Below, piece after piece: positions 19,045-52,784 of a stretch of DNA of 64,000 nt. The number at the start of each line of letters is the position of its first letter. Position 1 is the stretch's first letter. Location: positions 623,814 through 687,813 of the forward strand of contig JAAOMT010000786.1 of the NCBI GenBank assembly GCA_016748015.1, given 5' to 3'. The notes under the pieces were generated by a model. The model searched no databases. It was not told the origin of the DNA and saw only the letters and a list, made by a program, of their open reading frames with translations. Made by a program: the position numbers and the translations under genes. Source of the stretch: Geosiphon pyriformis uo1. Lineage: Eukaryota > Fungi > Glomeromycota.

Positions 19045-19792
19045 TGATTATTTAGGGTCTTAAAGCAAATAACAAATCCATAACTTGGTGCTCAATTGAT
19101 GATGTTGGTTTCTGAAATATTGTTATCTAAAGGTTTTGGTTAAGTCCTTGGTATAATGGACAGAAATTCAATAGTTGTTTATTTATAGCTTCTCAGAATT
19201 GCAATTCTGTCAATTTTTTTTTTCAGCTTGATGGCCAGTATTCTTCTGATAAGTAATCCATAATTCTTTTATATGTTCTACCCACTCACAGAGGTCTTTT
19301 ACCAGGCAATTTTTGACATCAATAACTCAGTGCTTTAATCCTTTAATCAATTAGTACACAACAAAAAAAATAAAAAAATAAAAAAAAAAAATAAAAAAAA
19401 TAAAAAAATAAGCCAAGGCAATAAAAGTTAGTATTCTGTCAATAGCCATGATCAAGAGCTATTGTTCTAGTGTGGTTAAGTATTAATTTCTATCAACATA
19501 AAGTGTTGATATAGGAGAGTAGATTTGAGATAGTGAATAATTATTTATTTGATATTTGTGATGTAAAAGATTGCTTAGATCAAATCTAAACTGCAAAGTC
19601 TGTTTTTTTTACTTCTAATGCTACCAATATATATACATAATTGAGATTCCTCAATTTTTTACACCAGGAATTCTGAGATTTCTGAAATTTTGCAATTTCT
19701 TTGAGAGGAATTCTGGAATTCTATATTTATTACAGCTATTTTTGATTGGCTAATTTATATGCTAATATACTTCCTATATTCTATGAATAACA
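19045..19792 (-). repeat. 3' LTR of element 1a (outer ~10 bp deleted)
   Basis: Direct repeat of 48146-48969 with an internal deletion in the repeat array. Confidence 0.9.
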
Positions 19793-19806
19793 TTATTTCT
19801 TTTTCT

Positions 19807-20435
19807 TTAATATTGAGCTTTGTCAAGATTTTCTAATTCTAATTCTTCATCTTTGAGTATTTCTTGAACTTTTTTTTCAAGAATTACCTGTGCTATTTTG
19901 TTCTGTAATTCTTCAAATTGAGTGTTGGTTATTTTTCCCATTTAGTTAATAGTAATAGAGTTCATTTCTGGATTGAGTAAGATTCTGGTTGATCTTGAAA
20001 TCTAGTGTGTAGCCAATAAATGGCTCTTGCTTATGTGATCAAATTGTTTTTTTCCACAAATTGTTTCAATTGTTGCAGTATTGTTGAGTCAAATAATTGT
20101 TTTGTTTTATCTGTATACAAGTCTTAAATATTCAAGTATTGTCCCAAATAAAAGTAGCAAAAGTTTTTTGGAAATTGTTGTATCTACCAATTTCAAGTTT
20201 CTATAGTCAACTTTTAATATTGGGTAACTTTTGGTTGTGTTTCTATTGCCAATTTCACTTTTGTAATTATTTTGTTCACAATGTTTTCTGTTTTCTTTTA
20301 TATTTTATCTCGTGGTTTTTTTCTGGTGTTTGTGTATCTGATAGTTTGTTGGTTGATTGTAATTTCGATTTTTTGTTGTTGAATCAGTTAAAAAAGTTGT
20401 TGTGCTAGTAAGTGAATGCCATCAGTAATCTCCAT
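19807..20435 (-). pseudogene. ORF3 of element 1a, unknown function
   Basis: Starts ATG GAG ATT ACT GAT (MEITD) and ends AQY*. Homologous to 32262-32891. Confidence 0.8.
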
Positions 20436-20489
20436 TTTTTTTCTGTTGTCTTTTGTTATGTATACTATATCTTTATATACTTTTTTGGT

Positions 20490-21874
20490 TGTTCAATTTT
20501 ATGTATTTGGTTCAATGATTATAATTGGTTCTAGATCTTGTGGAATCTCATCTGGTTTGACTAATATTCTCTGTACTCCTAATTGTAAAATATTATTGAT
20601 AGATGATGATGCTATATAGTAATATTGTTTTAGTCAATCACTATGTGCTGCTTTGGTTAAGATTTTGTTGTTCAACCTTAATTTATAAGCTCTATTTCCA
20701 AGAATTTCTTCTATGTGAAATGGTCTGTCTCATTTAGGATCAAATTTTCTACTCCATTGTTTTTTTACTTTAATATAATATAAAAGTACTTTGTTTCCAA
20801 TTTTGAATTTAACTGGTTTTTCTGGTAGTTGGTTATTGTGTTTTTTTTTTGTTTTTCTTGTGACTTTTGGATGTTATTAGCTGCTCTTTGCTGTGTGTTT
20901 TCTAGTATCTCTATTAAGTCATATGTTCTTTTCAACAATGTTCTTTGAAAATTTTCTTCTGTTATTGATTCTGTTAGATATGTTTTGACTTCTATCTCAA
21001 CTGATAAGGTTGCTGTTCTACCATATACTAATTTGAATGGTGTTGCTTGTATAGTGTCTTGCTTTATTGTCTGATAAGCAAATAATACTAATGGTATAAT
21101 TAAATCCCATTCGTTCTGGTTTTTTTGACTGATTTTGACAATGGCTTCACACAATGTTCTGTTAAATCTTTCAACTAACTCATTTGTTTGTAGATAGTAT
21201 GGTGATAATAATAGTTTTTTGATTCCAAATCTTTGACTTAATTCTGCTAGTATTCTATTTACAAAGTGAATTCCTTGATCTGATAATAGTTCTTTTAGAC
21301 ATCTATGTTAATATATCAAATCTTGATGAACGAATTTGACAATGGATTCTACATCTGCTCTTTGAATGGCTTTTGCTTCTGGCTATTTTGTGAGATAATC
21401 TATGACTATTGCAATATATCTGTTGTTTCTACTGGTTATTGTTAATGGTCTGACTAAGTCAATTCCAATGTGATCAAATGGTTGTTCTATTTTGATTAGT
21501 CTCAATAGTTTACTGGATTTTGTTCCTCCTTTTTTCTGACAAGCATCACAATTTTGCACATATTAGATAATATCTGGATATATTAATGGCCAATAGTATC
21601 TTTTTCTGGTTCTTTTTATGGTTGTTTTTTTATGAAAATATCCTGCTGTTGGGTCTGAATACATGTTGAATAATATTATCTCTTTCTCTGGTTCTGTGAT
21701 TACTCTGGTTGGTTGATCTGGATTTTTTTTGTTTTTCTGGTAAAATATATTTTGATGGTTGATAAAATATTTTGATTGTTGTTTGATATGGCTTCATTTT
21801 TTTGAAGATAATTTTTCCTTAAACTGCCGAATATTTATATAATATTTAAGTTGTTAGTATTTCTGTATATTCAT
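20490..21874 (-). pseudogene. Integrase ORF of element 1a
   Basis: ATG MNIQKY at 21874; CEAIVKISQK..VLFAY..TPFKLVYGR. Confidence 0.85.
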
Positions 21875-21906
21875 TTTTTGTTATATTTTTTTGGGTTGAA
21901 ATGTTT

Positions 21907-23630
21907 TTAGATTTGTCTCATTCACGACAAACCATTGGCATTCCTATTGTCTTTTCTCTTTTTATAATATACTGTGAATATATATGGTGATAGTACTATT
22001 TTCCATCTTGCATGGTAATCATCTCCAAATTCTTGCTTTTAGATTGCAGTTAATCTCTTGTAATCAGTGTACACATCAAACTTTTGACTCAAGTATTCTT
22101 TCCATTTGGTAATAGCCCAATAGATAGCTAAGTGTTTAAATGCTGAAGTTCTATAGTTTTTTTCAGCTGGATTTAAGCTTTTGCTAGCATATGCTACTGG
22201 ATGTTTTCTTCTATCTGAACTTTTTTGCAATAATACTACTCCTAATGCTTGGCCTGATGTATCAGTGGTAATGATGAATAGTTTGCTGTGATCTGGATAC
22301 ATCAACACTAAAGCTTGAATAAGCTTTCTTCTTAATATATTGAAGACTTCTTGCTGGTTTTTTGTTCATTCATATTTGGTGTTTTTTGATTGAAGCTGGT
22401 ATAATGGCTGAGCCAGTTTAGAAAAATCTTTAATAAAGTGACAATAGTATCCAGCAAATCCCAAGAATGCTCTTAGTTCTGTCAAGTTGGTTGATACTGG
22501 AAAGTTCTTGACCACTTCAATTTTGTCTGGATTTATTTTGATACTATTTTTGTTTACAATATGTCCCAAAAACTTGAGTTCCGTTTTTCCAAAGAAACAT
22601 TTGGTTGTATTTAGCTTTAATCCGGCTCTTCTTAGTCTTTCAAACACTTGTTGGAAATAATGTAGATGATCATTGAATGTTTTTGAGAACATATTAGTGT
22701 TATCCAAATATACGACTACTGATTTTTATAGCAGTTTCATATAGACAATTTCCATCAGCTGTTGAAATGTGGCTGGAGTATTTATTAAACCAAATGGCAT
22801 TACTTCAAATTCAAAGTTTTCTTCCCAAGTTGTAAAAGCTGTTTTCTTCTTGTCTTCTGGTTTCATGATTATTTGCCAATAACTGCTGTCTAAGTTTAAA
22901 GTTGAGAACCATTTTTTTCCTTCAAAAGCATTGAATAGTTCTTGAATTTTTGGAGTTGGGTAGCTATTATTTTTGATTACTTCATTTAATTTCCAGTAAT
23001 CCACACAAAAGTGTACTTTTCCATTCTTCTTACAGACTAGTACTATTGGTGACAACTATGGGCTTATTGATGGCTGAATTAATCCATTGTCGAACATTCG
23101 ATTGATTTCTTAATGAATAATCTCATGGCTGGCTGGTAGTACTCTGTATGTTCTCTGTTTAATTGGCATTGCATCTCCAGTCTTAATTTGGTGTTGGATA
23201 ATGTCAGTTCTGCCAAATTCGTTTTTACTGGCAAAGATGTTATTAAAATTGTTGAATAACATTTTGAGCTGCATATGTTGTAGTGGATCTAAGTTTTTCA
23301 TGTTTATTTGTTCCAATTGTTCTGGTTAGAGCAAATAACATTTGTTTCATCCATATATTGTTTGTGATATAATATCCACATATTCACAAAGTTGTGGAAA
23401 GTCTGGAATGGTGTCTGACAGTTGGTCTTCAATTTCAGTGGTTAAGTATCCAATAGTGGTTCCTTCTGGTATCTTGATGACATTTTTCATGTTGTTGTAA
23501 ATGAGAATTTTGATATAACTGTGGTTCTTAACTGGTATGTGTAGATTGACTAATCCAATTTCTCTTAATTTACAAAGTATTGCTTCTGCCTCAAAAATCT
23601 GAACCTAATTCTTTACTTTTCTCTCTATGG
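21907..23630 (-). pseudogene. RT and RNase H of element 1a
   Basis: SPIVLV..FCVDY, VMPFGLINTPATFQ, YLDN, FLGH, TTDTSG..HPVAYAS, VYTD. Confidence 0.92.
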
Positions 23631-24498
23631 TGTTACTTATAGAAATATAGGAAATATATTAGCATAATTATTAGCCAATCAGAAGTAAGCATAGTAAATG
23701 TGGAATTCCAAGATTCCTCTCAGGAATTGCAGGATTCCAGAAATTTCAGGATTCCCGACAAGGAATTGCAGGATTCCAGAATTCTAGGATTCCTCTCAAA
23801 GGAATTGCAGGATTCCAGGAATTCCAGAATTCCTGTCGTGAAGAATCGGGAAATTGAGGAATCCCAATTATGTATATATAGTGGTAGTGTTAGAAACAGA
23901 AAAGACAGAATTGATACCACAGAATCTTTAGCCAAGAAACAAAATTATCAAATAAATAATTATTCCATATCTCAATTCACTCTCCACTATCAACACTTCA
24001 TGTTGATAGTAATTGATACTTAACCACACTGGAACAATAGCTCTTGATTATGGCTATTGACAGAATACTAATCTGCCAAACCACCTGGGCTTATTTCTTT
24101 TCTTTCTTTATTTTCTTGTATTTTCTTTTCTTTATTTTATTTGATTTGATTGTTGTGTATACTAATTGATTAAAAGATTAAGCACTGAGTTATTGACATC
24201 AAAGATAGCCTGGTAAAAGACCCAAAAATAAGGATAGGATTTTATATATTATCAGATAGCTTACTAGAAAGACACAACTGCCAGACTAAATCTGGCCACC
24301 ACACTGAGAAAGAAATTGGGAAAACAACTTAAGAATACAACCACTATCAACCTTATTGAATCTCTGTCCATTATACAAAAGACTCAACCAAAATCTTCAG
24401 ATAACAATACCTTTAGAACATTATCAACGGAACTAGCTTTAAGCACTAAGTTATGGGTTTGTTATTTAATTCAACAGCCAAAATACTCACCTGTAACA
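23631..24498 (+). repeat. 5' LTR of element 1b
   Basis: Direct repeat of 32905-33772 with inverted termini TGTTAC/GTAACA. CCAAT at ~23675 and TATATATA at ~23873. Confidence 0.97.
23699..23866 (+). repeat. GGAATT(G/C)CAGGATTCC-type tandem array in U3
   Basis: Repeated GGAATTCC/GGATTCC quasi-palindromes between the CCAAT and TATA motifs. Also present in the other 1a/1b LTRs. Confidence 0.9.
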
Positions 24499-24500
24499 TT

Positions 24501-24517
24501 TGGTGCTTCCTGTGAGG
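24501..24517 (+). promoter_or_regulatory. Primer-binding site (possibly elongator tRNA-Met)
   Basis: TGGTGCTTCCTGTGAGG lies 2 nt after the LTR. Element 1a has TAGTGCTCCTTGTGAGG. The tRNA identity is tentative. Confidence 0.8.
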
Positions 24518-24518
24518 T

Positions 24519-27500
24519 ATAATCCTACAGAAAACCAGCACCAACAACACCAAACCAAAAGTGGTAGAATCAGAAACCATAGAAGCAAACCATTTAAAAT
24601 TCGCGAAAGCTTTATTTCAACACTATTGTCAACACTTAGAATTAAACCACAATCATATATCTACTGAATCAGTCTTTAACTTCTACATCAACGAAAAAAT
24701 TTCCTCTTTGTTAGGAACACCAGTGAATACTGAATTAGCCAGGAAAACTTTCTACAGAGAATTAATTCAAAATACCAATCTGCCAACAAATCACAATTTT
24801 GCTTCCATCATTACTGAAATCAACAAAGAAATTGAACATCACATCCAACAAAGATATCCAATTACTTATGCCAATAAAGGCAAAGGGAAACTACAAACAC
24901 CAGCAGTAATACCCAAAAAGATACAACCACCCACTTAGAAGAAAACAAGAATTGAATCACCAACTGACCCATCCTATCACTACACACTGGGAAGTGTCAT
25001 CAATATAACATCAGCAAGTGCGTCCACATCAAATGTAATATCAACATTCGGATGACTCCCATTCCAAAGTAAACAAAGAAAAACAGATCTATTAGGACCA
25101 TATGGCGAATATTTTGAGGGATTTAAATCACAATCATCAATCCCATCAGGAATTTGATCACCACCACCTCAACCAGACTTTGGAACTGCTACTCTGTGGG
25201 AACTATCTGAAGAAGAAGAGGAAAAAGAATTGAAAGATCAAGAATTTATTTACCAAAACCTGATCACTGAAAGCCCGGAAGTTGAAACCCTGAATCTTCA
25301 AGCTTAGCAAAATTTAAATATAGAAAATTTGGAAATCAAAACTCTGAATCAGCAAAGGCAGAACAATCCAAACCCCGAATTAATTAATCAGCAAAACTTA
25401 CCTCTGGTAATTGTCATCAATCAACCACCAATTAATTCAGTAGCCAAACCTATACAGCAGCCATTTCAACTACCACTCCAACAACCAGGACAACAACAAC
25501 AACTGTTTCAATAGCCACCACAACAACCCAACTTAGATCCAATGGCCTATGCACCAATCACAAAACTTGACAACTTTACCGGCAAAGAGGATGATGCTCA
25601 GGTATGGCTGAATGATATAGAAAAAGCCATCGCAGCCAATGAATGGAATGATGCTCAAGCAATGCAAGCCATTCCATACTTTTTTAAGGATACTGCTGAT
25701 TTATGGTACCAGAGCTTGATTAATAAACCACAAGATTTTAATGCCTTCAAAGTGGAATTCTTAAGATACTTCAGCAACAATAACAGCATCAATAGTCTAG
25801 TCAATGCATTCACTACCATAAAACAAGGAGAAACTGAAACAGTCACAACTTACCTGGAATGCTTTCATTAAAACCTACGCCAAATTCAAGCAATTGACGC
25901 CAACTATTTCACAGCACCAAATCAGTTTATCCATGGCCTGTGCAGCAGCATCTTGTAACATGTACGTCCGTTGCATTCAGGTACCCTTCAAGACGTAGTT
26001 ACACGCGCCAGAGATTTTGAATCCACTGAGTCAGAGACTAACCACGCCCAAGCTGTTAATCTAGTAATAAACGGATTATCTAAATTGGATTCCAAATTAG
26101 AGAAGTTTAGTGAATCAATTAATAAGAGATTAAAAGGATACTTAGCTGACAATTACGCCATTTATCAGTCTCCACAATGATGCAATAATCAAAGAAACTC
26201 TAATTATGCCCAAAATCAACCATGTTCATCTTCATCAACCAATCAACAGTGGCAACAGGAAATGTATATCTGCCACTATTGTGGTAAACAAGAACATATT
26301 CAAATTGACTGTCACCAGCGTCTAAATAACCAATGATTGGGAAATCAATATCAAAACCCCGATTGCCAGTTCCAAACTCCGAATCATTATCCAAATTAGG
26401 GTTAAGACCAATATCAAAATAATTACCTGCTAATAACACAGCAACCAATCTATCAACCACCAGTATATCAACCTCCGATTTATCAGCTGTAGCCACAAGT
26501 AATATATCAACCACAGCCACCAATCATCTATCAACCCCAACCAATTTAAACACCACTCCAGAATCCAGCTCAAATGACATCAGGCAACTCTTGATCCAGA
26601 GTCACTCAAAACTGGAGATCGGCGATAGTTGTTTACCAACTGATTCTCAGTTTGCTAAACCCACCATCAGGATCACACACCCAGAATTTGGATACCAGTC
26701 GCATCCAAAACCCAAATTCCCAACACTATTTAAGTCTCCTGGTTAACCCAGAAGATGCCACATCCTACAACATGGAATCCAATCAGCACATACCTCCCAA
26801 CACGATTCCACTAGCAACCATCTCTAGTGACAAATCCCTAGCAGCCATCTTTCCTTTTGAACTCGAAGAAAACACACTGATACCATTATTTAGTAGAGCC
26901 ACCCTCGAAGAAAAACCTATAACAGCAATGTACACAGATGCCAGAGTTGATGGTCACTCCATCAAACTCATCCTAGATAGTGGATCAGCTGGCAGCATAA
27001 TCACAAGACAGCTCATAGATCAATTAGGTTGCCGAGTTGATCGAGCTGCCAGCACTAGAATCATTACTGCCGATGGTGCCACAAAAACACCTATCGGCAA
27101 GATAGATGATTTCCTTATAGAAATTAATAGCATCATAGTACTCATCAAAGTCATAGTAATGGATGCCACCCAATACCAAGCCCTAATTGGTAATGACTGG
27201 CTGTCCAAAACCAACGCCGTGCTCAATTGGACAACCCAAGAGTTAATACTCAGCCAGAATGGAAGACACACATGAGTACCAGCAATATGTGGCCATTTCA
27301 AGGCTACCAACAACATGGTACCACTAATCGACTTTGACAAGAAGAAACTAAAACCTACCTGGAAAGCCTACCAAGTGTTGTGGGCTGATGAAGAGCACAA
27401 TGAACTGCCACCAATACTCTTCTGGGACAACAACAACAAGGGAAAAGGGAAACAAAAGGAAGAACTTACCTGGGAAACTGATGACCTGATATGAACCGAC

Positions 27501-30500
27501 AATAACGAGAGCAAACCGACTTCAAGCTGGGAAAGGGAAGAAGACAAAAAAAATAAAATAAAAGGAAAAGAAAAAGAGACCACTCAAACCACCACTGCTT
27601 ATAAAATCTACACCATACCATAATGATCTACTTATCGTCAATTTAAGCTTATATGTGTTGATTGTGACAAGAAATTGTTGTCAATGGATGCATGCTGTGG
27701 GGACGATGAGAAATATTCAATGGCAACTAGGTTCTATTGCCACCCATGTGTTCTTAAATGCTTTGGAAGACCAAAACAAGTAGGGAAATAGAACAACCAG
27801 TTATGCTTAGCTTGTGAAGAGACTCTATTGGACAAAGGAATATGGCATGACATTCCTGGATGTGAAGGAACATGCAATGTATTGTGTCAATACACGATTC
27901 TGATTAACAACTGGATTAAAAAGGGGACACCAATTGAAGCCGCTTGGCAAAGAACAGTGTGACAATTAGACAGTTGTCCACATGACGATAACGAAATTTG
28001 GAAAATGACAACCACAAAAATTGAAGGCACATCGCCAGAAGAAATCTGGACAATTAAAAACAACCCACCAGAATCCATTGAGCTTGACTGGGACGCAAAG
28101 CCAGTCATAAATTTTCTAGAACCAGAAGAGTTCCATAAATACTACCAAAACTTGGCACCTACTAGAGAAGAGCAAGAACAATGGCTAGTACAGTTAAATA
28201 CAAGACTGTGTTACCATTGTTTAATTTCCAGTGACTTTGAATATTGTGATGATTGTGACCTTATTTACAATCCACCACCATGCATGATCTACTCGATCCC
28301 TGAAGAAGAAGAACCAATCAGCAGCTGTGCATCAGAATCAGAATCGCTGATCAATCGTGATCCAGACTCTAATGATAACAATGAAAACACTGGTTCCAGC
28401 TCCATTCAAAATGGCAATAATGACGAAAACAATTCAGACTCAGATTCAAATCCCGATTTAAACTATGAACAATATATTGCACTATTAGATCTCTCCAAGA
28501 AACAAGAGTTGAAATGGTATAGTGACAATAGGGAAGGTATTATGCCAGAACGTGTACATGATACTAATGCAGAGTTTGATCTGAGGTATCCAGGAAAAGA
28601 GATCATCAAATTGGAGCCACATTTACGCATCTGCATTGATCTGAAAATAGCACTAAAAATTCTGGCAACAACAATGGTTCAATTAGCATCTAGGAGTAGT
28701 CTAGCAAAAAGAGGAATTAATATAAGAGGAGGAATAATTGACGCAGGATATATAGGAAATATCATCGCAATGTTATAAAATGACTCAGAAAAGGCCTATA
28801 TAATAGAATCCAATGAAAAGATAGCACAGGCAATATTCCTGCCTCTGGTTAGAATAGCTCAGTTAGTATCAGTGGGAAAGAGGGAGAAATTAGGAATAAC
28901 AGCGAAAGGAATACAGAGATTTGGATTGATGGGTAAAATAGATGTACCAGTTAATATGGCAAAGGAAAAAATTGTTGGCCAAGGAGAAATTATCTCAACC
29001 GGTCAAGCTATTTCTATTCCACCATATAGCCAGTACATGTTAGCAATAGAAAGGAAGGAAAAGAAGCAAGAACAGATTTTTGAAGCTGAAGCAAACCTTT
29101 GTGAATCAGGAGAGATTGGACTGATCAATTTCCACATACCAGCCAAGAGCTATAGCTGCATAAAAATTCCCATCTACAACAACACTGGCAATATCATCAA
29201 CATACCAGAAGGAACTACCATCAGATATTTAACCACAGAAATAGAAGACCAACCACCAAACCTCATTCCAGACTTTCCACAACTTTGTGAATATGTTGAC
29301 ATCACATCACAAACAATCTATGGACGAGACAAATGTTATTTGCTCCAACCAGAACAATTGGAACAAATGAACATAAGAAACTTAGATCCACTCCAATGTA
29401 TACAGCTCAAGATATTACTCAACAATTTCAACGACATCTTTGCCAGCGAAAATGAGTTTGGCCAAACTGACATTATCCAGCATCAGATCAAGACTGGAGA
29501 TGCAATGCCAATCAAACAAAGAGCATACAGAGTGCTGCCAGCCAGTCACAAAATCATTTGTCAAGAGATAAACAGAATGCTTGACAATGGGCTAATTCAA
29601 CCATCAATGAGCCCATGGTCGTCACTAGTGGTACTCATCTATAAGAAAAATAGAAAAATCCGGTTTTGTGTAGACTACAGGAAACTTAATAGTGTAACTC
29701 GTGGAGACAGTTATCCAACTCCACAAATACAGAAATTATTCGATGCTTTCAGTGGGAACAAATAGTTCTCAACATTAGATTTGAACAGTGGTTACTGGCA
29801 AGTAGCCATGAATCCAGCTGACAAAGAGAAGACAGCATTTACTACTAGAGAAGGGAATTTTGAATTTGAAGTGATGCCATTTGGCTTAACCAATGCCCCA
29901 GCAACTTTCCAATGGCTAATGGAAATTGTTTATACTGGTTTATTGTGGAAATCAGTAGTTGTATACTTGGACAACACCAATGTATTCTCAAAGACATTTG
30001 ATGATCATCTTCATCTTCAACAAGTGTTCAAAAGACTAAGAAAAGCAGGACTAAAGTTAAATGTGACAAAGTGCTTCTTTGGCAAGACAAAACTCAAATT
30101 CTTGGAACACATAGTCAACAAAGATGGCATCAAAACAGATTCAGAGAAAATAGAGATAGTAAAGAACTTTCCAGTGCCAACCAATATAACAAAACTGAAA
30201 TCATTCTTGGGATTCACTAGCTACTATTGTCATTTTATCAAGAACTTTTCCAAGATAGTGCAGCCACTCAACCAACTGCAAAACAAAAATACGAAATATG
30301 AATGAACAGAAAGTCAACAAGAAGCTTTTGATATTCTGAGAAAAAAGCTCATCCAAGCTCTAGTACTGATCTATCCAGATTACAGCAAACCATTCATCAT
30401 CACCACTAATGCATCTGGCCAAGCATTGAGAGCAGTATTATCTTAGAGGACTGGACAGCAGAGAACATCCAGTAGCATATGCCAGCAGAGATTTAACACC

Positions 30501-30762
30501 AGCTGAAAAGAACTATGGAACACCGGAACAAGAACACTTAGCAATATACTGGGCCATCATGAAATAGAAAGAATACTTGAGCCAGAAGTTTGAAGTATAC
30601 ACAGATCACAAGGGATTAACATCACTCCAAAAACAAGAATTTGGAGATGGAAGACAGTCAAAATGGAAAATGGCACTCACACCATACAATTATACTATAC
30701 ATTACAAAAAAGGAAAAGACAATGGAAATGCTGACGGTTTATTGTAAATAAGACAAATCTAA
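24519..30762 (+). pseudogene. Gag-PR-Cys-rich domain-dUTPase-RT-RNase H polyprotein of element 1b
   Basis: ORF fragments from 24561 to 30305 are all in one frame. Capsid FTGKEDDAQVWL, knuckle CHYCGKQEHIQIDC, protease LILDSGSAGSII, dUTPase, RT (VMPFGLTNAPATFQ, YLDN) and RH. One 2-bp deletion at ~30450. Confidence 0.92.
28540..28935 (+). pseudogene. Trimeric dUTPase domain within the polyprotein
   Basis: Motifs AEFDL, ASRSSL, GIIDAGYIG, EKIAQAI and G..RFG correspond to dUTPase motifs I-V. Confidence 0.92.
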
Positions 30763-30825
30763 GAACATTTCAACCCAAAAATATAATAAAACCAGAACAA
30801 TACCAACAAAAAAATACAACAAAAG

Positions 30826-32207
30826 ATGAACATACAAAAATATTAACAATTGCAACATTATCTAAACACTCAACAGTTCAAAAAGAATTTATCTCAAATG
30901 GAATGAAAGAGTATCAAACAACAATCAAAATATTTTATCACTCACCAAAATATACTTTATCGGAAAAATAGAAGGGATCCAGATCAACCAACCAGAGTAA
31001 TTACGGAGCCAGAAAAAGAGACAATATTATTCAACATGCACTCAAATCCAACAGCAGGACATTTTTACAAAGAAGCAACCATGGAAAGAACCAGAAAAAG
31101 ATACTATTGGCCATCAATGTACCCAGACATCATTCAATATGTTCAAAATTGTGATGCTTGTCAGCGAAGAGGAGGAACAAGACCCAGTGAACCATTAAGA
31201 CCAATCAAAGTGGGACAACCATTTGACCGTATTGGAATTGATTTAGTCAGACCATTAACAATTACCAACAGAGGAAACAGATACATAGTGGTAGCCATGG
31301 ACTATCTCACTAAATGGCCAGAGGCAAAAGCAATTCAAAGAGCGGATGCAGAATTCATTGCCGAATTCATTCATCAGGATTTGATTTATCAACATGAATG
31401 TCCAAAAGAATTATTATTAGACCAAGGAACTTATTTTGTGAACAAACATTAACAGAATTGAGCCAAAGATTCGGAATCAAGAAACCATTATCATCACCAT
31501 ACCATCCACAAACCAATAGATTAGTAGAAAGATTCAACAGAACATTGTGTGAAGCAATAGCTAAACTCAGCCAAAAAAACCAGAACAATTGGGATTTGTT
31601 AATACCATCAGTACTATTTGCTTATCGGACAATAAAGCAAGATACTACACAAACAACACCATTTGAATTAGTATATGGTAGAACAGCAACACTACCAGTA
31701 GAAATAAAAGTCAGCACATACCCAACCAAACCAATAACAGAAGAGAATTTCAAAGATACATTGTTGAGAAAAACATATGACTTAATGGAAACATTGGAAA
31801 ACAACCAAAGAAGAGCAGCTGATAATATTTAAAAGTTACAAGAAAAACAGAAAAAAAGACACAATAGTTAACTACCAGACAAACCAGTTGAATTCAAGAT
31901 TGGAGACAAAGTATTACTATATTGTACCAAAGCAGAAAAACAATGGAGTGGAAAATTCGACCCCAAATGGGACGGACCATTTCACATAGAAGAAATTTTA
32001 AGAAATGGAGCTTACAAATTAAGATTGAATAACAAAATTTTAACCAAAGCAGCACATGGAGATCGACTAAAGCCATATCGTAACATCACATTACCATCTA
32101 CCAGTAATATTCCACAATTAAGAGTACAGAGAATACTAGTCCAACCAGATGAGATTCCATGAGATCTGGAACCAATTGTTATTATCAACAACAACATGTT
32201 AAATTGA
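30826..32207 (+). pseudogene. Stand-alone integrase ORF of element 1b
   Basis: ATG MNIQKY; HHCC (H..GH..YYWP..CDAC); DDE core (GIDL, DQG, ERFN); GPY/F module WDGPF. No chromodomain is evident. Confidence 0.9.
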
Positions 32208-32261
32208 TCAATTAAAAGAATATATAAAGATATAGTAGACATAACAGGAAATATCAAAAAA

Positions 32262-32891
32262 ATGGAAATTACAGACAACATTCACATATTAGCACAACAA
32301 CTCTTTCAATTAATCCAACACCAGAAAATGGAGATTACAATCAATCAACAAACCATTCAATATCAAGATACTAGAAAGACATTGCAACTCAGAACACTGA
32401 AGAAAACTGAAAATATGGTGGACAAAATCATGGTGAAAGTAAAATTAGCAATAAAAGAATCGACAAAAGAGTCACTATATCAAGAGTTAACTAAAGAAAC
32501 TTGGAATTGGTAGATACAACAATTTCCATGAAACTATTGTTATTTTTACTTGGGACAACATGTAAATATCCAGAATCTATATACGGATAAAACAAAGCGA
32601 TTATTCGACAAAAGAATACTACAACAATTAGAACATTTTGTGGGAAAGAACAACTTATCTACACAAGCCCGAGCCATATACCAAATACACACAGCATTTC
32701 AGGATAAACCAGAAATATTGCTCAACAGAGCAATGGATATGGTTACCAGTAATCAATTGGGAAAAATTACCAATGCTTAATTTGAAGAATTACAGACCCA
32801 AATAACACAAGTAATTCTCGAAAACGAAATCCAGGAAATACTTTAAGAGGGGGAATTACATGAGTTGGATTTCGATGAAGCTCAATATTAA
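32262..32891 (+). pseudogene. ORF3 of element 1b (~209 aa), unknown function
   Basis: One 630-nt frame from ATG to TAA, interrupted only by transition-type stops. Homologues are present in all four elements. Confidence 0.82.
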
Positions 32892-32904
32892 AAGGAGGGA
32901 ATAA
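32891..32904 (+). promoter_or_regulatory. Polypurine tract
   Basis: AAAGGAGGGAATAA immediately before the 3' LTR. Confidence 0.85.
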
Positions 32905-33772
32905 TGTTACTCATAGAAATATAGGAAATATATTAGCATAATTATTAGCCAATCAGAAGTAAGTGTAGTAAATGTGGAATTCCAGGATTCTTCTCAGGAA
33001 TTGCAGGATTCCAGAAATTTCAGGATTCCTGACAAGGAATTACAGAATTCCAGAATTCCAGGATTCCTTTCAAAGGAATTGCAGGATTCCAGGAATTCTA
33101 GGATTCCTGTTGTGAAAAATTGGGGAATTGAGGAATCCCAATTATGTATATATAGTGGTAGTATTAGAAACAGAAAAGACAGAATTGATACCACAGAATT
33201 CTTAGCCAAGAAACAAAATTATCAAATAAATAATTATTCCATATCTCAATTCACTCTCCACTATCAACACTTTATGTTGATAGTAATTGATACTTAACCA
33301 CGCTGGAACAATAGCTCTTGATTATGGCTATTGATGAAATACTAATCTGCCAAACTGCCTGGGCTTATTTCTTTTTTTTCTTTATTTTTTTGTATTTTTT
33401 TTTCTTTATTTTATTTGATTTGATTGTTGTGTATATTAATTGATTAAAAAATTAAGCACTGAGTTATTGACGTCAAGGATAGCCTGGTAAAAGACCCAGA
33501 AATAAGGGTAGGATTTTATATATTATCAGATAGCTTACCAGAAGGGCATGACTGCCAGACTAAATCCGGCCACCATACTGAGAAAGAAATTGAGAAAACA
33601 ACTTAAGAATACAACCACTATCAATCTTATTGAATCTCTGTTCATTATACAAAGGACTCAACCAAAACCTTCAGATAACAATACCTTCAGAACATCATCA
33701 ACGGAACTAGCTTTGAGCACCAAGTTACAGGTTTGTTATTTAATTCAACAGCTGAAATAATCACCTGTAACA
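32905..33772 (+). repeat. 3' LTR of element 1b
   Basis: 868-bp direct repeat of 23631-24498. Confidence 0.97.
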
Positions 33773-36700
33773 ATGGTTATCATGTATTGATTATATGGTG
33801 GAATGGAAATTGATTGATGAGTGGAGATAATTTTTCCCTTGTCAACAATTTTTTTTTCTGCCATATTAACTGATACATCTATTCTACCCATTTATTCAAA
33901 ACCCTGTATTTTTTTAGCTGTGATCCCTAATTCTTCTCTGTTTCCCATTGACACTAACTGAGCTATTTTTATCAGAGGTAGAAATATTGCCTGTGCTATC
34001 TTTTTGTTTGGCTCTATAATATAGGCTTTTTCAAAGTTATTCTGTAGTATTACAATGATGTTTCCTACATATCCTGCATCAATTATTTCTCTTCTGATGT
34101 TGATTCTCTTTTTCACTAAACTACTCCTAAATGCTAGTTGAATTATAGTTGTTAAAATTTCCAGTACTATTTTGAGATCCAGGCATGTGCATAAATGTGG
34201 TTCCAATTTGATGGTGTCCTTTCTTGGATATCTCAAATCAAACCTGGTATTGGTATTATGTACACATTCTGGTATAATGCCTTTATTGTTGTCACTATAC
34301 CATCTGAGTTCCTGTTCCTTGAAAAAATCAGAAAGCATGATGTATGTTTCAGGATTTGAATCAAAATTCAGATCACTATTATTTTCTTTGCCATATTGAG
34401 CAAAGCTAAAACTGTTGTTTTTATTATCATCATTGTCAGAGTTTGAATTGGAATTGAAAGTTGATTCCAATTCTGCTGTGCAGTTGCTAATTGGTTTTTC
34501 CTCTTCTGGAATTGTGTAGATCATGCATGGTAGTAGATTGTAAATAAGGTCACACTTATTACAATATTGAAAATCACATGGAATTAAACAGTGGTTACAT
34601 AGTTAGGTATTAATTTTTTCTAAATATTGTTCTTGTTCTTTTTGAGTGGATGCTAATTCTTAGTAGTGTTTGTGGAATTGTTCTGGATCCAAAAGATTTA
34701 TGACTAGTTCTGAGTTTCAGTTAAGTTCTATAAGTTCTGGAGAGTTATTTTTTATTATCCTGATTTCCTCTGATGACACGCCTTTGATTTTGGTGAGTGC
34801 CATTTGCCATATTTTGTTATCATTATGTGGACAACTGTCTAGACATTTTACTGCTTTTTTCTAGGTGGCTTCGATTAATGTTTTTTTTCTTACCTAGTCA
34901 CTTATTAAGATCATATACTGACATGATTCATCACATGTTTCTCTTCTCCCAGGAATGTCATTCCATATTTCTTTGTTAAAGAGAGTTTTGCTGCAAGCCA
35001 AACATGATTTGTTGTCTCATTTTTCTTGTCTTTTTGGTCATCCAAACCATTCAATGTTGCATGAATGGCAATAGAATTTAGTTGCTGTCTGCCATTTTTC
35101 ATTGTCACTACAGTATGCATTCATTGTGGACAATTTCTTGTCACAGTCAATGAATATTAATTTTGGTCAGCAATAGTTAGATAGTGGTGGTATGGTATAA
35201 ATATAAGGAATATGAGTGGCTGCAGTAATTAGAACTGGCTCTTTTTCTTTTCCTTTTGTCTTTTTTTCTCACTCCTAAGTTGATAATTTGTCCAGATTAT
35301 TGTCAGTTTCTCAGGCTTGGTTGGTATTCTAGATAAGTTCTTTTTTTTGTTTTCTTTTTCTGTTGTTGTCCCAGAAGAGTATTGGCAGTAATTTATGGTG
35401 GTCATTTTCAGCCCATAATACTTGATAGGCTTTCCAAGTAGATTTCTTCTCTTTTTCCTTAAACTCGATAAGTGGTGCTGTCATGTTGGTAGTTTTGAAA
35501 TGGTCACACATGGCTGGAACACATGTGTGTTGACTGTTCTGGCTAAGTTGAAGCTCTTGCGTGTTCCAATCAAGTGTTATGTTGGTTTTAGACAGTCAAT
35601 CATTACCAATGAGTACTTGGTATTGAATGGCTTCTATGACTAATATTTTGATTGACACAATGATGCTATTGACTTCTATAGGAAAGTCATCAATCTTGCC
35701 AATTGGAGTTTTGGTCACTCCATTAGCAGTGATGATTCATGCACTAGCAGTTCAATCAACTTGGCGACTTAATTGGTCTATGAATTGTTTTATAATGATG
35801 CTGCCAGCTGATTTATTGTCTAAGATTAGTTTGATGAATTGGTCATCAACTTTGGCATCAGTGTATATGATGGTAATAGATTTTTTTTCGAGAGTGGCTC
35901 CACTAAATAATGACATGACTAACAGTTCCTCAAGTTCAAATGGAAAGATGGCATTTAGTGATTTGTTCTCTGTGATGGTAGCTGGTAGAATATTGTTAGT
36001 GGGTGTTAGAGTGTAATTGGTTTTTTGGTTGTTGGATGGGACATTTTCTGGGATTACTAGAAGACTTAAATAGTTCTGAGAATTTGGGTTTTGGGTGTAC
36101 CCAACTCCTGAACTCTGCTGGCATGATTCTAATAGATAATCTAATGAACTAGGAATTGGTTGATAAACCACCATTGCCAATCTCCAGTTTTAGGTAACTC
36201 TCAATCTAGGGTTCTCTGATGTCATTTGAGCTGGATTTAATGTTGGTGTTTGAACTACAGGTGTCTGATAAATTATTTGTGGGTTGATATATTACTTGTG
36301 GCTGTGGTTGATAGATTAGGATTTGATATATAATTGGTTGATAAATAGACTGCTGCATTATTAGCAGGTAAGTAGGTTGATATTGATCTTGATTTGCATA
36401 ATGATTCGGTATTTGAAGTTTGTAATCAGGATTTCTATATTGATTTTTTGATTGTATATTACTATAAAAATGGCAGTTAGCTTGGATATGGCCTTGTTTA
36501 CCACAGTTGTGGCAGACATGCATTTCTGGCTGCCACAGCTGATTGAATGATAATAATGGACATAACTGATTTTGGAAACAATTCGCATTTTCTGAATTAT
36601 TGCATCATTGTAGTGGTTAATAAATTGTGTAATTGTCAGCTAAGTATCTCTTGATTTTCTGATTGATTGAATTACTGAATTGCTTTAGTTTGGAATCCAA

Positions 36701-37199
36701 ATCAAATAATCTATTCATTACTAGATTTACAACTTGTGCATAATTAGCTTCTAATTCAGCTAATTCAAAATCTCTGGTGCATGTAACTGTATTTTGTAGG
36801 TTGCCTAGATGTAGTGATTGTATGTATTGCAGGATGTTACTGTGTAATCTGTGAATAAACTGATTCAGGATCTGGGCTGTGGTAAAATAATTGGCATTGA
36901 TGCTTGTATTTGGTGCAAATTTTGATGGAAACATCTCAAGTAAGTGGTAACTGCTTCAGTATCTTCCTGTTTGATGGTGGTAAAGGTGTTGGCCAAGCAA
37001 TTAATGCTGTTGCTATTACTAAAATATCTTAAAAATTCCAATTTAAATGCATCAAATGTTTGGGGTTTCTGAGCTAGGCTATGATACCACAAGTTGGTGG
37101 CATCTTAAAGAAAATTGGGGATTGCTTAAAGAGCTCTGATGTCATTCCAGTTATTGGTGGTGATGGCTTTGACAATATCATTGATCCATGTTTGGGCAT
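33773..37199 (-). pseudogene. Element 1a polyprotein middle piece (Gag, PR, Cys domain, dUTPase)
   Basis: CHNCGKQGHIQANC, LILDNKSAGSII, RFDLRYP..RSSL..IIDAGYVG..KIAQAI. Confidence 0.9.
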
Positions 37200-38151
37200 T
37201 GTTACTGGAGGTTTTTGGTCTCTTTTCTTGAATGTTGTTAATGTTAATTTGCTGTGAATTCACATTCTCAGGAAATAGTTGGACCTCCAGTAACTGAATT
37301 TATCTTTAAATTATCTCTTATAATTTGAACTGCTGGGCTTATAAGTGGAATGGCCAATTCTGTGCCAGTTATTTTATGTAGTTATGTTGTAGTAAACGTC
37401 AACTCTTTTCCAGGAATTGCTTGTCTGAAAGCTCACTAAAAATTGTGTAGTTATTTTGCTATGAAAATCAACTCTTCTACAGGAATCTCGTCTATAGGCT
37501 ACCCTAATGATTGTAATAAGAAAAATAAAAGAAAATAAAAGAAATGTAAAAGAAATAGAATTTTGTCAAGAGAAACGTTTTCTATCCAGGCCTGAAGTCA
37601 CTAACAGTTTATTGAAATTGGTAGCTAATTAATTTTAAAACATTAGTTGTGTTGAGGGAATTTCAAGTGTAATAATTTAAGAATTTGGTTTTTGAATATT
37701 TAATTTTTATTTGATTTTGTAAAAGATAATTTGTTTCAATTAAGATATCTAACATAAGATACTATGGTAAGATACTATAAGAAGATACATTTTCTTGAAG
37801 AAAAAAGCTCTTTTTTTATACAACTTTTTGTAGTACTAGTCTTTAAACTTGTACTTTTCTTTTTGCTATAATTTGGGTGAACTAAAGATACATTTCGGCA
37901 AACTACAAATTATTTCACTGAACTATTGATTATTTCGGCCAATTTTCATTAATTTCGGCAAATTTTAACTATGTTAAATAGTTCAGGATATTGTGTAATT
38001 TAATCATCTTAATTTTTAGAGTACAAATCGGATTATTGATTGAGTAATGATTTTTGATAATTTGATTAAATAATAAGTAATAATCGAAATAATAATAATA
38101 TATGCTAATTAATAATAGGAATTATGAAGATAATTTTATGTTAATTAATAG

Positions 38152-38859
38152 CTAAGATTCTACTGGTAACATAATCTTCTCCTCAAAACTGAGCTTTATC
38201 AAAGTCCAAGCACTATCTGTAATATTAAAATAGTGGTCCAAGATAATTAAAGTAATCTGGTCTAAAAATTGTTGAAATTTTAGTTCTGTGAGCTTTCCAA
38301 TGTATTGAATCTTTATTGGATGAAGTATTGGGTTTTGTAAGACGTTTTTACAAGTGTTAAATAAATCATAGAGTCTAAATGCTGCTCTAAGTTTATAGCA
38401 AATGTTTGTTGGTCCAGCTGTTGTCTTAAATTCATTGTGAATTTGTTTTTGTATAGCCTCAGAAGTAATGTTGGTTGCTTCAAGTTCTAGTTTTCATTTA
38501 TAAAGTGTTTTTTCAATATGAAAATATCTATATATAAGAGTATGTTCATTGTTCTGTTTATTGAGAAATAGTAGAAGTTTTTGTTGCATTGTGGCATTTG
38601 ATAGAATGTCAATAGAGGCAGATAAAAAGTTCTCTTTTAGTGTTTGCTTCAAAAGTTTTGGTAATTGATTTTCAGAGTAACTTTTTGTTTTTCTTCTATA
38701 GGGGTGATAATTCTGAGAATTATTTACTACTGGAGCTGTGATTTCTTTTTGAATGTAATTAATTTGACTTCTATTAATCATTATAAATAAGTCAAAAAGT
38801 GTTTTCAAAGCTAACATTAATTTTTGGGATATTTGTTGAATATTTCGGGGAATAATCAT
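38152..38859 (-). pseudogene. ORF3 of element 2a
   Basis: MIIPRNIQQISQKLMLALK..YRYFHIEK..RAAFRLYDLF..IGKLTELKF. Homologous to 50511-51230. Confidence 0.82.
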
Positions 38860-39022
38860 GATAAAAATGACTAATTAATAAACAAAATTTGAAAAAAAAT
38901 AAAGAAAATTATTTTTGGATATAAGATTTTTATTTGTTTTTGGTTTTGAATATTTCTTCTAATTATTTACTATTTTTGATTTATGTTTTGTGTATTTTAA
39001 AGGAGTTTGTGAAAATGTTAAA

Positions 39023-40407
39023 TTAAGTGTTCAAGTTTGGTTGTTGTTCTATTATAATTATTGGTTTTAAATTTTGGAGAATATCTTCAGGATTAATTAA
39101 AAGAGAATGTGTACCAATTTGTAGAATTAATGGTTCAAGATTGTTTTTGGAATGATAGTGTTTCAATCAATTTCTATGTGCAACTTTTGCTAGTACTTTG
39201 TTATTAAGTCTTAACTTATATGATCCATTGCCTAGAATTTCGTAAATATAAAATAGTCCATCCTATTTATGTTCAAATTTTCTACTTTACTGTTTTTCAG
39301 CCTTTATTCTGTATAAGAGAACTTTATTTTCAACTTTAAATTTGTTGGTAACTGGTGGCAGTTTGTTGTCATGTTTTTCTTTTTGTAGAGCTTGGAAGTG
39401 TTCAATATGAGTGACTGCTATGTATCTTTTTTCTTTCAATGTACTAAGAAGTGTGTAAGCTTTTCTTTGGAGTGTTTTTTGAAAGTTTTTTTCATTGATT
39501 AGTTGCACTGGGTATGTTTCCACTGTGAAATTAATTGGTAATATTGCTGTCCTTCCATAAGTAAGATCAAATGGTGTGTGTTTTATAGTATCTTGTTTTA
39601 GTGTTCTGTATGCTAGTAACACTGATGGAATAAAAATATTCTATTTTTGCTCAAAATTTGTTGAGACTTTGGCTAATGATTCACATAATGTTCTGTTAAA
39701 ATGTTCTACAAGTCTATTTGTTTGGGGGTGATAAGGTGATAAAAAAAGTCTTTTAACATTAAATTATTCACAAATTTCTTGTATTAGGTTGTTCACAAAA
39801 TGTGTTCTTTAATCAGATAAAAGCTCAATTGGGCATTCATGTCTACAAATAATGTCTTCATAAATGAAATTTGCTACTGATTTTGCATTTGCTTTTTGAA
39901 TGGCTCTAGCTTTAAGCCATTTGGTGAGATAATCTACTGCAACTACAATATAGCAATTTTCTTGAATTGTGATAAGTAGTAGTCTGACTAAATCAATTCC
40001 AACTCTGTTAAAAAATTGTCCAACTTTGATTGAATTTAAAGGTTCTGTGGAGCAAGTTTTTTCTCTTCTTTGACAACTATCACAAGATTCTACATATTGT
40101 CAAATGTCTTTTTGCATGTGAGACCAAAAATAATGTTTAAGAGTTCTTTGGATTGTTCTATCTCTTCCCAAGTGTGCTGAAGATAGATCTGTGTACATGT
40201 TATATAGGATTGTTTTTATTCATTTTCTTGTACTAATCTGAATAATTGGTTTGGGTTTCTACAATTTTTGTAATAAATTTTGTTGTGATGTATGAAATAT
40301 TGTCTGAATTGGTGTTGTAATTAATGTTTTTTACTTGGAAACCAATTTTTTGGTATGGTAAAAGTTTCCAAATAGTTTTTAAGATTGTTGTAATTTCTGG
40401 GATCTAT
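39023..40407 (-). pseudogene. Integrase ORF of element 2a (start ATG>ATA)
   Basis: (M)DPRNY start; LLAYRTLKQDT..TPFDLTYGR. Colinear with 51353-52738. Confidence 0.85.
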
Positions 40408-40470
40408 TATTGTTTTGTTGTTTTGTTGTTTTGTTGGTAGTAGTAAGTTATAGTAGATTTGTTAATAGTG

Positions 40471-43400
40471 TTAATTTTATCTTATTCTTAAAAGACTATT
40501 AACATTAGTGTGTAATTTTCTTGGTTTGTGGTGTACAATATATTTGTAATCTGCTAGAAAATCATTTCATTGAGACTGTTTGGCACTTTGTTTAGTTTTC
40601 TTTTTATTAAGCCATTTGAGACCAATATTGTTAGTTATAATGTCAAATTCTTTTCCATCCTTCAAATATTGTTGAAAATGTTTAAGAGCCCAAATGACTG
40701 CAGCAGCTTTTAATTCAGTTGAGTCATATTTGAGTTCTGTTGGCTTGAGTGTTCTGCTAGCATAGGCAATGACTTGCTCCTGGCCATTTTCATCTAATTG
40801 TGATAGGATGGCACCAAAAGCTATGTGTGAAACATCAGTGGCTAGTTGGAACTATTTGTTAAAGTCTGGGTATGCAAAAACTGGAGCTGTTGTCAATTTT
40901 GTTTTAAGGGTTTCAAAAACTTTCTGTTGTTCTTTAGTCTATTAATATGGCATGTTTTTGTTGGTAAGATAGTTAAGTAGTTTGGCAATTTCTAAGAATT
41001 TTTTTATGAATTTTCTATAGTAAGAGACTAATTCTACAAATTCTCATAGCTCTGTGGTATTTTTGGAAGTTTGAAAGTTTTTGACAACACTGATTGTTCC
41101 AGAATTTGGTTTGACTCCATTTTTGCTAACAATGTGTCCAAAAAAGATTAAGCTTGTTTTTCCAAAGTGACATTTCTCAATGTTTAACTTTAATCCTGCT
41201 TTCCATAATCATTGAAAAACTTCTCACAAGTGAATAAGATGAGCTTCAAAGCTTGGTAAGTATACATTAGTGTTATCAAGATAAACAACTATTAATTGCC
41301 ATAAGAGTCCTTCATATACAATATTCATGAGTTATTGAAATGTTGTTGGTGCATTGCAGAGTTCAAAAGACATAACATTGAAATTATAGTTCTCTTCTTA
41401 AGTAGTGAATGCTGTTTTGGATCGATTTTTTGGGTCCATTTTGACTTGTTAGTATTTACTTTCCAAGTCTAAAGTTGAGAAGAACTTGGCTTTTTCTAAG
41501 GCATTCAGCATATCATCAATTCTTGAAAGAAGGTAAGCATCTTCAATTGTCATGCTGTTGAGCTGATAATAATCTACACAGAATCTGATTTTTTCATTTT
41601 TCTTTTTAACAAGAACTATTGGTGAAGTCTAAAGACTTCTTGATGATTAAATCAATTCGTTATTAAGCATTCTTTGGATCTCTTCTCTGATAAATTGGTG
41701 GCTAGCAGGTAAAACTCGATAGACTTGTTGTTGTTTTGGTGGAGCATCTCCTGTGTGGATCTAATATTGAACAATATCAGTTTTTCCAAGATTATTGTTG
41801 TCTTTTGCAAATATATCTGCAAATTCAGCTATCAATTGCTTCAATTGTTTTTGTTGTTGGGGTTCTAAGAGACCCATGTTGATTTAAGAGAGTTTTTCTT
41901 CTAAAAAATGATAGTTTTCAGTGATAGGAATGATGTTTAGATTAGGTAATAGGGTATGTCTTACAATTTCGATGAAATTAGAGACAATTTGGAAGTTTTC
42001 ATCTTGAAAGATATTGCTGTGTATGATTCTAATTTCTAATTTATTTAATAAGACAATAGAATAATTATTGGGGTTATAGAATGTAACTTGAAATTTTTTC
42101 ATTCCTTTAGGAATATAAACGTTTAGAATTGAAATTTCATGCTTTAAACAGATTTGTTCATTGGATTCAAAAATTTGTTGGGTAGTAGTGGGTTTTAAGC
42201 AAGTGTAAATTTCGTGATGTTTACCAAAAAGTGAAATGGTAATTGGTTGGAGAAGTTGAAGAATCTGGTGAGATTCATTCTGTACATTGAAAGCTATGTT
42301 TACTGGCACTGTAAATCGTCTAATTGAACCAAAACTTTGAGTTTTTTTTTCACTTTTTTCTAATTGTTCTCTGTTTTTAACTGATTATAAACCCGAAATG
42401 TTGATTAAGAGTAGGTAAATTGCTTGGGCAATCTTTTCAGCATGTTCAATTATGAATGGTTTGTCTGTTTTATTCTGTAACATGATAGTAATGTTTCTAG
42501 TATATCCTGTATCTATGACTTCTCCTCTAACATTGATTTCTTTGCTTGCCAATAATGATCTGGATGCAATTTGAATCATTGCTCCAGGTGAAATTTTAAA
42601 AGTGATTCTGAGATTGATTTTTGTTAAAAACTTTGGTTGGAGAACCAAAGTATCTTTTTCTGAATATTTTAGATCATATTCAGCATCAATCTCATGTGCT
42701 TTTTCTGGTCTGATTTTTTGGCCATGGTTGTCAAAATATTTAAGTTGTAAGGGTGATTGATTTTCAAGAAGATAGATAAGGGTGGTTGGTAGTTCTTCTA
42801 CCAGTTCAGATACTCCAAATTCGATTTCATTTTCATCATTCTCATCTGGCAGGGGAATGCTAAGAGCATAACATTCTAAACACCATTGGTTATCACAAAG
42901 CATAACACATTCTTTATATAATTGAATGTTTATTTGCTTTAATTATTAAATTTGAGTTTCTTTGGTTGGGTATGTATAACTTGCAATTTGGTGGTAGATT
43001 TCTACTTCATTTTCATAATCAAATCCAGCTAATTCCATAGTATACTCAATATATTTAGCTTTTTTTATTTGGCAGACATCTTTTTGAGTGGCTCTATTAA
43101 TTAATGTCATTGCTAAGTCAAAAATTATTTCAGCATCATGAGAGTAGTAATAGAGTTTATTGAAGGCACTGTTGTATGCTGCATTAAATAGTGTTCCTCT
43201 TCTGACTTTTTCTGAAATTGATAGAGCATATTGACATGTTTAATTACATACTCCTCCTCTCATTACAACATCAATCCAGTTGTATTCTTCTGATAGTATA
43301 TCTCCACATGTGAGACAAGGAATGTTGTCTTATTTTCCACTTCTTTTTGGAGATCCAAATCGTTCTCTATGGCATGTTTTACAGAAATAGCAGGTGCAGA

Positions 43401-51230: not shown

Positions 51231-51352
51231 TATAAGAGATTTGAAAATAAAAGAAAATTATTTTTGGTGTATGGGTTTTTATGTTATTTTTGTTTTGTTT
51301 TTGTGAGATTGTTTCTAAATTATAATGATATAACTATAATAATAAATTTAAA

Positions 51353-52738: not shown

Positions 52739-52784
52739 TGTTTGTTGTTTTGTTGTTAATTCAAATGGGTGTTGTTTTTATGTT

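Follow-up and report, generated by a model that had tools for sequence, protein, structure and literature searches.

The integrase (IN) of the LTR retrotransposon lineage described here is almost certainly encoded by a separate cistron, which follows the stop codon that closes the Pol frame after RNase H (RH). The group with this split layout is large and likely to be fungal, and the layout itself is real, lineage-wide and apparently undescribed. No description of it was found among the listed matches of full-text searches, and Repbase, GyDB, subscription papers and the supplementary TE libraries of AMF genome papers may already contain it. The evidence comes from four decayed elements in a 64-kb window (this being the whole stretch of DNA analysed) and from intact relatives, which support the preliminary proposal of a separately translated IN both from the IN side and from the reverse transcriptase (RT) side.

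In Ty3/Gypsy elements and orthoretroviruses, a covalent Gag-Pol tether sets the amount of integrase and its entry into the particle. Since a whole intact lineage does without it, the tether is evidently dispensable and, given this established biology, another route for the packaging of IN would be needed. Two questions thereby become open to direct test, namely by what means IN without a tether reaches its cDNA and in what way the second and third long ORFs of a fungal RNA are translated, with a covarying RNA element and the family of a third ORF (ORF3) providing concrete handles. There is also a consequence for annotation, as gene callers join these ORFs by false introns or list the INs as orphan 'DDE transposases'.

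The four window elements and their RNase H-integrase junctions

The window is AT-rich and packed with decayed retroelements, and its comparison with itself identified four dead LTR elements, A to D (Table 1), with A and B forming one family and C and D a second. Their LTR pairs are approximately 93% identical and end in TG..CA, and the elements have target-site duplications of 4 bp, a TGG primer site and a polypurine tract. Pfam domains occur in the order Gag, protease (PR), dUTPase, RT and RH, followed by those of IN, namely a zinc finger, a core and a weakly matched SH3 domain. The nearest named homologs are those of Rhizophagus and Cetraspora, from which the host is probably a Glomeromycotina-like fungus; an intact member, P0008, is encoded by Rhizophagus irregularis. 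The Gag-Pol frame of A has 23 stops in its first 1975 codons, the counts for the two alternative frames being 136 and 144, and its IN ORF is interrupted by stops and one frame slip; transitions account for 55 of the 56 differences between its two LTRs. The frame of copy B is continuous through RH, unlike that of A. Between the protease and dUTPase there is a long Cys-rich, acidic region (27276-28500) without a Pfam match. Elsewhere in the window, a decayed element on the forward strand at about 10200-16900, possessing endonuclease- and RT-like ORFs as judged by eye, is probably a non-LTR retrotransposon; related pieces are located at 1-3200 and 8369-10166. The region 2179-2680 has repeated matches to its own reverse complement.

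Table 1. Features of the four LTR elements in the 64-kb window (positions are those of the window)
Feature	Positions	Strand	Basis or remark
Element A, LTR retrotransposon of full length, decayed and inserted within B	23631..33772	+	LTRs 812/868 identical, TG..CA, duplication ATGG
A 5' LTR	23631..24498	+	self-comparison
A primer-binding-site-like sequence, begins TGG, 2 nt past LTR	24501..24517	+	sequence; candidate
A Gag-PR-dUTPase-RT-RH frame	24516..30762	+	Pfam; frame slip in RH near 30450
A dUTPase domain, between protease and RT	28536..28904	+	PF00692, E 3e-16
A RNase H stop TAA	30760..30762	+	sequence
A spacer of 63 nt, with A at 62% and G at 5%	30763..30825	+	sequence
A integrase ORF, begins at own ATG and comprises a zinc finger, a core and an SH3-like end	30826..32207	+	Pfam
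A third ORF (ORF3), own ATG	32262..32891	+	29% identity to post-IN ORF of intact locus L006
A polypurine tract	32890..32901	+	sequence
A 3' LTR	32905..33772	+	self-comparison
Element B, family of A, interrupted by nested A and C	19043..48969, low end approximate	-	self-comparison
B junction: stop 21909-21907 (TAA), 32-nt spacer, ATG 21874-21872	21872..21909	-	sequence
Element C, second family	37200..47088	-	LTRs 906/973 identical
C junction: stop 40473-40471 (TAA), 63-nt spacer, ATA at 40407-40405	40405..40473	-	sequence
Element D, family of C	49556..59445	-	LTRs 921/986 identical, duplication TCAG
D junction: stop 52787-52785 (TAG), 46-nt spacer, ATG 52738-52736	52736..52787	-	sequence

As first described, the RH stop is found at a homologous position in all four copies, in each case three to five codons past the RH-end motif N-A/V-D/N-x-L-S/L-R, and both the stops and the four spacer lengths were confirmed, with IN in phase 0, 2, 0 and 1 for A, B, C and D respectively. 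The statement that IN has its own ATG in all four copies holds for three of them and fails for C, where ATA is found instead, as the first description itself records. The spacers, for which no fold was predicted, consist of 61-62% A and 2-5% G compared to 40% A and 16% G for element A overall, with the gap between IN and ORF3 being likewise A-rich (59% A). That of A possesses two further in-frame stops and no ATG. In a search of A, B and D for in-frame GT-AG introns that would fuse RH to IN, none was found in A or B, and a single poor one in D.

Because two of the spacers are in frame and transition decay is heavy, the window alone left room for a decayed continuous frame. Conservation across genomic copies was followed with contigs of run X1 mapped on the junction of A, with a summed depth of about 650,000-790,000 and a variant threshold of 6%; the further runs X2 and X3 yielded three contigs and none, respectively. 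At the RH stop no other letter reached 6% of X1 depth, in agreement with the conserved stop originally suggested, and the same was found for the two in-frame spacer stops and the IN ATG of A. In contrast, 90% of X1 depth departs from the internal IN stop of A at 31830, and 88% from that at 31869. The middle of the A spacer is variable among copies and its length varies in X1, with a 1-nt loss in approximately 9% of the local depth and two 32-nt skips. X1 may be the source sample of the window itself, and no variant is listed either for 30745 and 30844, probable decay stops at the edges of the mapped region; this evidence for a conserved stop is supporting, not decisive.

Intact relatives of the window elements

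Homologs of IN were collected in the size range of 172-548 residues, and the best 120 of 727 are mostly 410-432 residues long, with the zinc motif beginning 66-76 residues from the N-terminal methionine in 91 of the 119 bearing it. As this size range cannot reveal fusions, longer proteins were also searched. Among the 120 listed of 875, just three reach 45% identity (P0121, P0122, and P0123), all of these being single-member NCBI gene models which join RH and IN. P0121 and P0122 lack the end of RH as well as the start of IN at the join, while P0123 skips RT altogether. No IN relative was found in the viral contig collection.

A DNA scan blind to fusion gave metagenome loci, the best 80 of 537 of which were taken, originating from 17 of 64 collection parts. 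The IN start is included in 65 of these, with the remaining 15 cut inside IN, and the RH-end motif was identified in 39 of the 65; the other 26 are short contigs, have long extensions or were missed by the regular expression (e.g., L052, with an 11-nt overlap). In all 39 loci with an RH end, Pol either stops 5' of the IN ATG or overlaps IN out of frame. The continuous RH-IN frame that would have spoken against a separate IN is thus absent from 39 of 39 loci, and the shared split layout of these intact relatives bears out the earlier view that the stop is not a product of decay. Pol and IN stand in all three phases (13, 15 and 11 loci) and the Pol stop is TAA in 21, TAG in nine and TGA in nine. 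The gaps range from -20 to 727 nt, with seven overlaps (including TAATG, ATGnnTAA, -14 and -20), 21 gaps of 0-100 nt, five of 101-200 nt and six longer, those of L026 and L029 being inflated owing to an earlier stop within their extension. Thirty nt is exceeded in 28 loci and not in the other 11; with eight of 39 junctions within 20 nt, tight coupling is not a general feature. Four gaps of 365-727 nt carry 7-12 ATGs each. Locus L006, with a spacer of 24 nt, is the nearest intact relative of the window elements in both trees (below); other intact junctions measure -1 nt in L023 and 89 nt in L003, and that of L013 has a stem-loop. Small ORFs of 44-83 codons lie between RH and IN in the spacers of L034, L022, L046, and L071; in L034 the 44-codon ORF has a stop that overlaps the IN ATG by 4 nt (ATGA).

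The RT side was searched with RT-RH of copy D against long proteins, ranked by best single alignment. Among the 120 listed, the top 23 RT-RH relatives are all without IN, and 20 of these 23 end within five residues of the aligned RH end. The RT-RH tree places the window copies, split loci and IN-less proteins together (SH 97, 58 rows with two fused), with L077 outside. The later trees were built on hand-picked subsets of 61, 46, and 45 rows, the RT trees having no named reference clades. In that of 61 rows, a group of 35 split and three fused rows has an SH-aLRT value of 92; L018 was left out here, as its RT in the first RT tree lies downstream of its IN.

The fused proteins grouping with the lineage are P0124, P0125, and perhaps P0159, and these are either reversions or sisters of the split lineage. 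P0124 nests among split INs in the IN tree (SH 98, 45 rows). A strictly split clade is not rejected by the RT data (AU p 0.73, 46-row subset), with which re-fusion of P0124 and P0125, a candidate considered, is not shown.

Translation of the separate integrase

The context of the IN ATG was analysed in 57 non-redundant loci, with 336 internal in-frame ATGs as a control. A purine is present at -3 in 51 of 57 compared to 211 of 336 internal ATGs (p 3e-5) and G at +4 in 47 of 57 compared to 99 of 336, while residue 2 of IN is D, E or N in 56 of 57; for the last two features protein constraint may be partly responsible. The IN ATG accordingly has the Kozak context of a true start codon. Upstream ATGs are depleted: the 25 spacers with a length of 10-200 nt have nine, whereas 21.8 would be expected from composition (p 0.0017). 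Nucleotide conservation was absent from the final 85 RH codons of 28 loci, and the RH coding sequence 5' of the stop revealed no shared RNA structure. The junction between IN and the next ORF, obtained for 14 of 40 complete INs, measures -8, -4, -1, +3 or 32-167 nt.

A covarying stem-loop of approximately 40 nt, with an 11-nt purine-rich bulge and a conserved loop, lies just 5' of the IN ATG in 21 of the 80 loci (e.g., L012:5194-5230), its 3' end being 0-9 nt from the ATG in 19 of the 21. It is absent from the window, and a diverged form occurs in L017. The model was built from 19 sequences, the remaining two being near-copies; in the 19, 91% of cells pair and nine of 14 pairs change on both sides, with the covariation score reached by none of 500 shuffles (relatedness of the sequences inflates such scores) and slid controls pairing at 24-46%. 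Twelve of the pairs were also predicted by RNAalifold. Single-sequence folding is modestly supportive (z -2.6 to +1.2), another fold being preferred in four of ten training sequences. A search of Rfam with 11 loci, six of them with the stem-loop, gave no stem-loop match at E up to 1, and the pattern had no exact match in viral contigs and genome contigs. In six relatives (L012:4357-5163, L027, L030, L037, L040, and L045) Pol extends 216-344 residues beyond RNase H with a conserved Cys/His-rich domain lacking a convincing Pfam match. These six loci form one branch, and five of them have the stem-loop.

Of the 38 loci whose sequence continues for 600 nt or more past IN, 23 have ORF3 (e.g., L013:1596-2039), whose family comprises 454 clusters (E-value cut-off 0.001). 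The window ORF3 matches that of L006 with an E-value of 3e-13 and the wider family weakly (E 0.083). Structure modelling gave a confident, all-helical model (mean pLDDT 97). The protein has no Pfam or PDB sequence match, and comparison of folds gave none either, with Foldseek E-values above 0.07 and a best VIA Z of 4.6; this does not show a new fold. In the Atlas, the ORF3 of L006 hit one unnamed Mucoromycota cluster, with no usable hit for L013.

The best explanation, to which we give about an even chance, is that Gag-Pol ends at RH and that IN, as a separate gene with its own ATG, is translated by reinitiation on the full-length RNA. Ribosomes would terminate at the RNase H stop, after which the small subunit would remain on the RNA, traverse the short unstructured spacer (or move backwards where the frames briefly overlap) and begin IN synthesis at the first ATG; ORF3 would probably be translated by the same restart. 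IN made in cis could then meet the particle via genomic RNA or Gag binding without a covalent tether or, alternatively, might join the cDNA later in the manner of a transposase. Reinitiation is favored by gaps that are mostly of 100 nt or less (28 of 39, overlaps included), by the same pattern at the IN-ORF3 junction and by the ATG-poor spacers. Reinitiation after long ORFs is described for the fungal viruses CHV1 and HvV190S, for CaMV and for SART1 in the available text of a review (PMC10275272), and the TAATG and ATGnnTAA overlaps of some loci resemble the TURBS system of caliciviruses. However, the same text gives about 20-30 nt or less as the distance needed by TURBS-type restart, whereas the window gaps are 32-63 nt and just 11 of 39 loci are within 30 nt; no TURBS-like upstream tethering RNA element was seen, the loci being only about 50% identical in protein. 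Gaps too long for classical stop-restart in 28 of 39 loci, the ATG-containing gaps of 365-727 nt and the failure to find a conserved upstream nucleotide element or structure all argue against reinitiation, as do the two or three fused proteins against a split reading of the lineage. With this spacing and no upstream element found, restart would have to rely on scanning or on the help of a protein, as in CaMV, the lineage differing in that no transactivator was identified. In SART1, reinitiation needs a downstream RNA structure (PMC10275272, in the text available), and one branch of the lineage likewise has a structure that follows the stop. The stem-loop, being close to the ATG in 21 loci, could hinder simple scanning.

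The Kozak context and ATG depletion are not specific to reinitiation, as they fit a capped subgenomic leader and ordinary cap-dependent scanning equally well. Production of IN (and ORF3) from subgenomic mRNAs, through an internal promoter or splicing from a 5' donor, routes used by foamy viruses for their accessory genes and Pol, is possible, with a chance well short of even. It would leave gap length free, as the range from -20 to 727 nt allows, and a precedent is found in foamy viruses, which have an internal promoter and whose Pol is packaged without Gag-Pol fusion (PMC12789967, in the text available). The lineage resembles these viruses in an enzyme made apart from Gag that may likewise be packaged without a covalent tether; there, however, all of Pol including IN is separate, whereas here RT-RH is on Gag and IN alone is free. 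Subgenomic mRNAs do not predict the recurrent short stop/start overlaps at two junctions, nor are they favored by the absence of conserved nucleotides from the last RH codons or by an AG immediately 5' of the IN ATG in only one of 57 loci. Quite unlikely is internal ribosome entry at the spacer, whether at an A-rich unstructured tract in the window families or at the stem-loop in the other branch. The base composition of the spacers and the position of the stem-loop directly 5' of the ATG agree with it, and A-rich internal entry occurs in yeast, but the whole element and the IN-ORF3 gap are also A-rich, an entry site could not be accommodated in eight of the 39 loci, and the stem-loop is missing from the window and from 58 of the 80 loci, many of these incomplete.

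It is very unlikely that RH and IN are rejoined by intron removal, readthrough or frameshifting, with the usual polyprotein still being made. The three NCBI gene models would suggest such joining, but the parts missing from them speak against it, and although some candidate in-frame intron is present in eight of 39 loci, all eight have long C-terminal extensions, which offer many donors. CUA or CAR follows the RH stop in none of 39 loci. By comparison, the in-frame Gag-PR/RT stops of the lineage, which serve as an internal control, read UGA-CUA, a readthrough context, in five of five examined (L015:2882, L025:3290, L069:1585, L022:870, and L061:3358, an unusual place for a recoding site). Pol overlaps the open IN frame in 11 of 39 loci, with a slippery-like heptamer in one of these 11, but no such overlap exists in the other 28, and all three phases occur. 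An origin of the stop and spacer by decay, in these dead copies, of a pol that was formerly uninterrupted is suggested by the many transition-derived stops and by the two of four spacers that are in frame. This can practically be dismissed, being refuted by the intact loci with their common split layout and opposed by the RH stop without a variant of at least 6% across genomic copies in X1.

As an extension of the reinitiation reading, it is proposed tentatively, and with considerable doubt, that the lineage represents a diverse and hitherto undescribed clade of LTR retrotransposons of fungi that would be polycistronic (Gag-Pol, IN, ORF3) on one RNA. In one branch, a 40-nt RNA switch at the IN start would be recognized either by IN itself or by the Cys/His domain that follows RNase H, controlling IN synthesis or loading the untethered IN, and a novel-fold ORF3 would act as a reinitiation transactivator or packaging adaptor. 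If true, this would be a natural form of integrase delivery without a Pol tether, half-way between LTR integrases and Ginger-type transposases.

Comparison with known retroelements

The window elements resemble Ty3/Gypsy elements (Ty3, DGLT-A) in their LTRs with TG..CA ends, 4-bp duplication, primer-binding site and polypurine tract, as well as in a Ty3-like capsid and the order Gag-PR-RT-RH-IN. The best PDB match of the RT is that of Ty3 (E-value 5e-88), with 9e-58 for CaMV and 1e-37 for foamy virus. A check of the IN C-terminus for GPY/F gave a Tf2-like SH3 domain (PF24626, E-value 4e-5), below the curated cut-off. The Pol of Ty1 and Ty3 is processed into PR, RT/RH, and IN, and DGLT-A is a single ORF, as stated in the available text of PMC5911963. 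The lineage differs in having IN outside Pol (split in 39 of 39 loci) and, as IN is not released from Pol, it is classed as a Ty3/Gypsy-like variant and not as a canonical member.

A free-standing Gypsy-type integrase of approximately 400 residues is also found in Ginger1 (Bao et al., 2010, PMC2836005, in the part available), and the N-terminal region before the zinc finger is similar as judged by eye. The IN tree of 45 rows puts split INs, Ginger-like proteins and eight fused INs in one group (SH 96), the four 'Ginger-like' rows being labelled from domain content alone; a broad group is also described for YPYY-bearing integrases in the available part of Bao et al. (PMC2836005). In contrast to Ginger1, the window elements possess direct LTRs and an RT, and no terminal inverted repeats were seen in them. 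Descent of the free IN from Ginger received no support, and an exclusive clade of split and Ginger-like INs was rejected (AU p 0.005).

Lokiretrovirus and Odin elements have a tether and a second RNase H, with env in Loki, whereas the window elements have a single Ty3-type RH followed by the stop; the C-terminal extensions of the six relatives gave no match to a second RH. A separate IN ORF in Loki or Odin elements was not borne out by term searches of the main texts of their descriptions. Further differences from Ty3/Gypsy are the third ORF after IN and the dUTPase between PR and RT of the window elements. A dUTPase is also possessed by P0267 and P0281, while P0279, P0291, and P0297 have a NUDIX domain (PF00293) in Pol.
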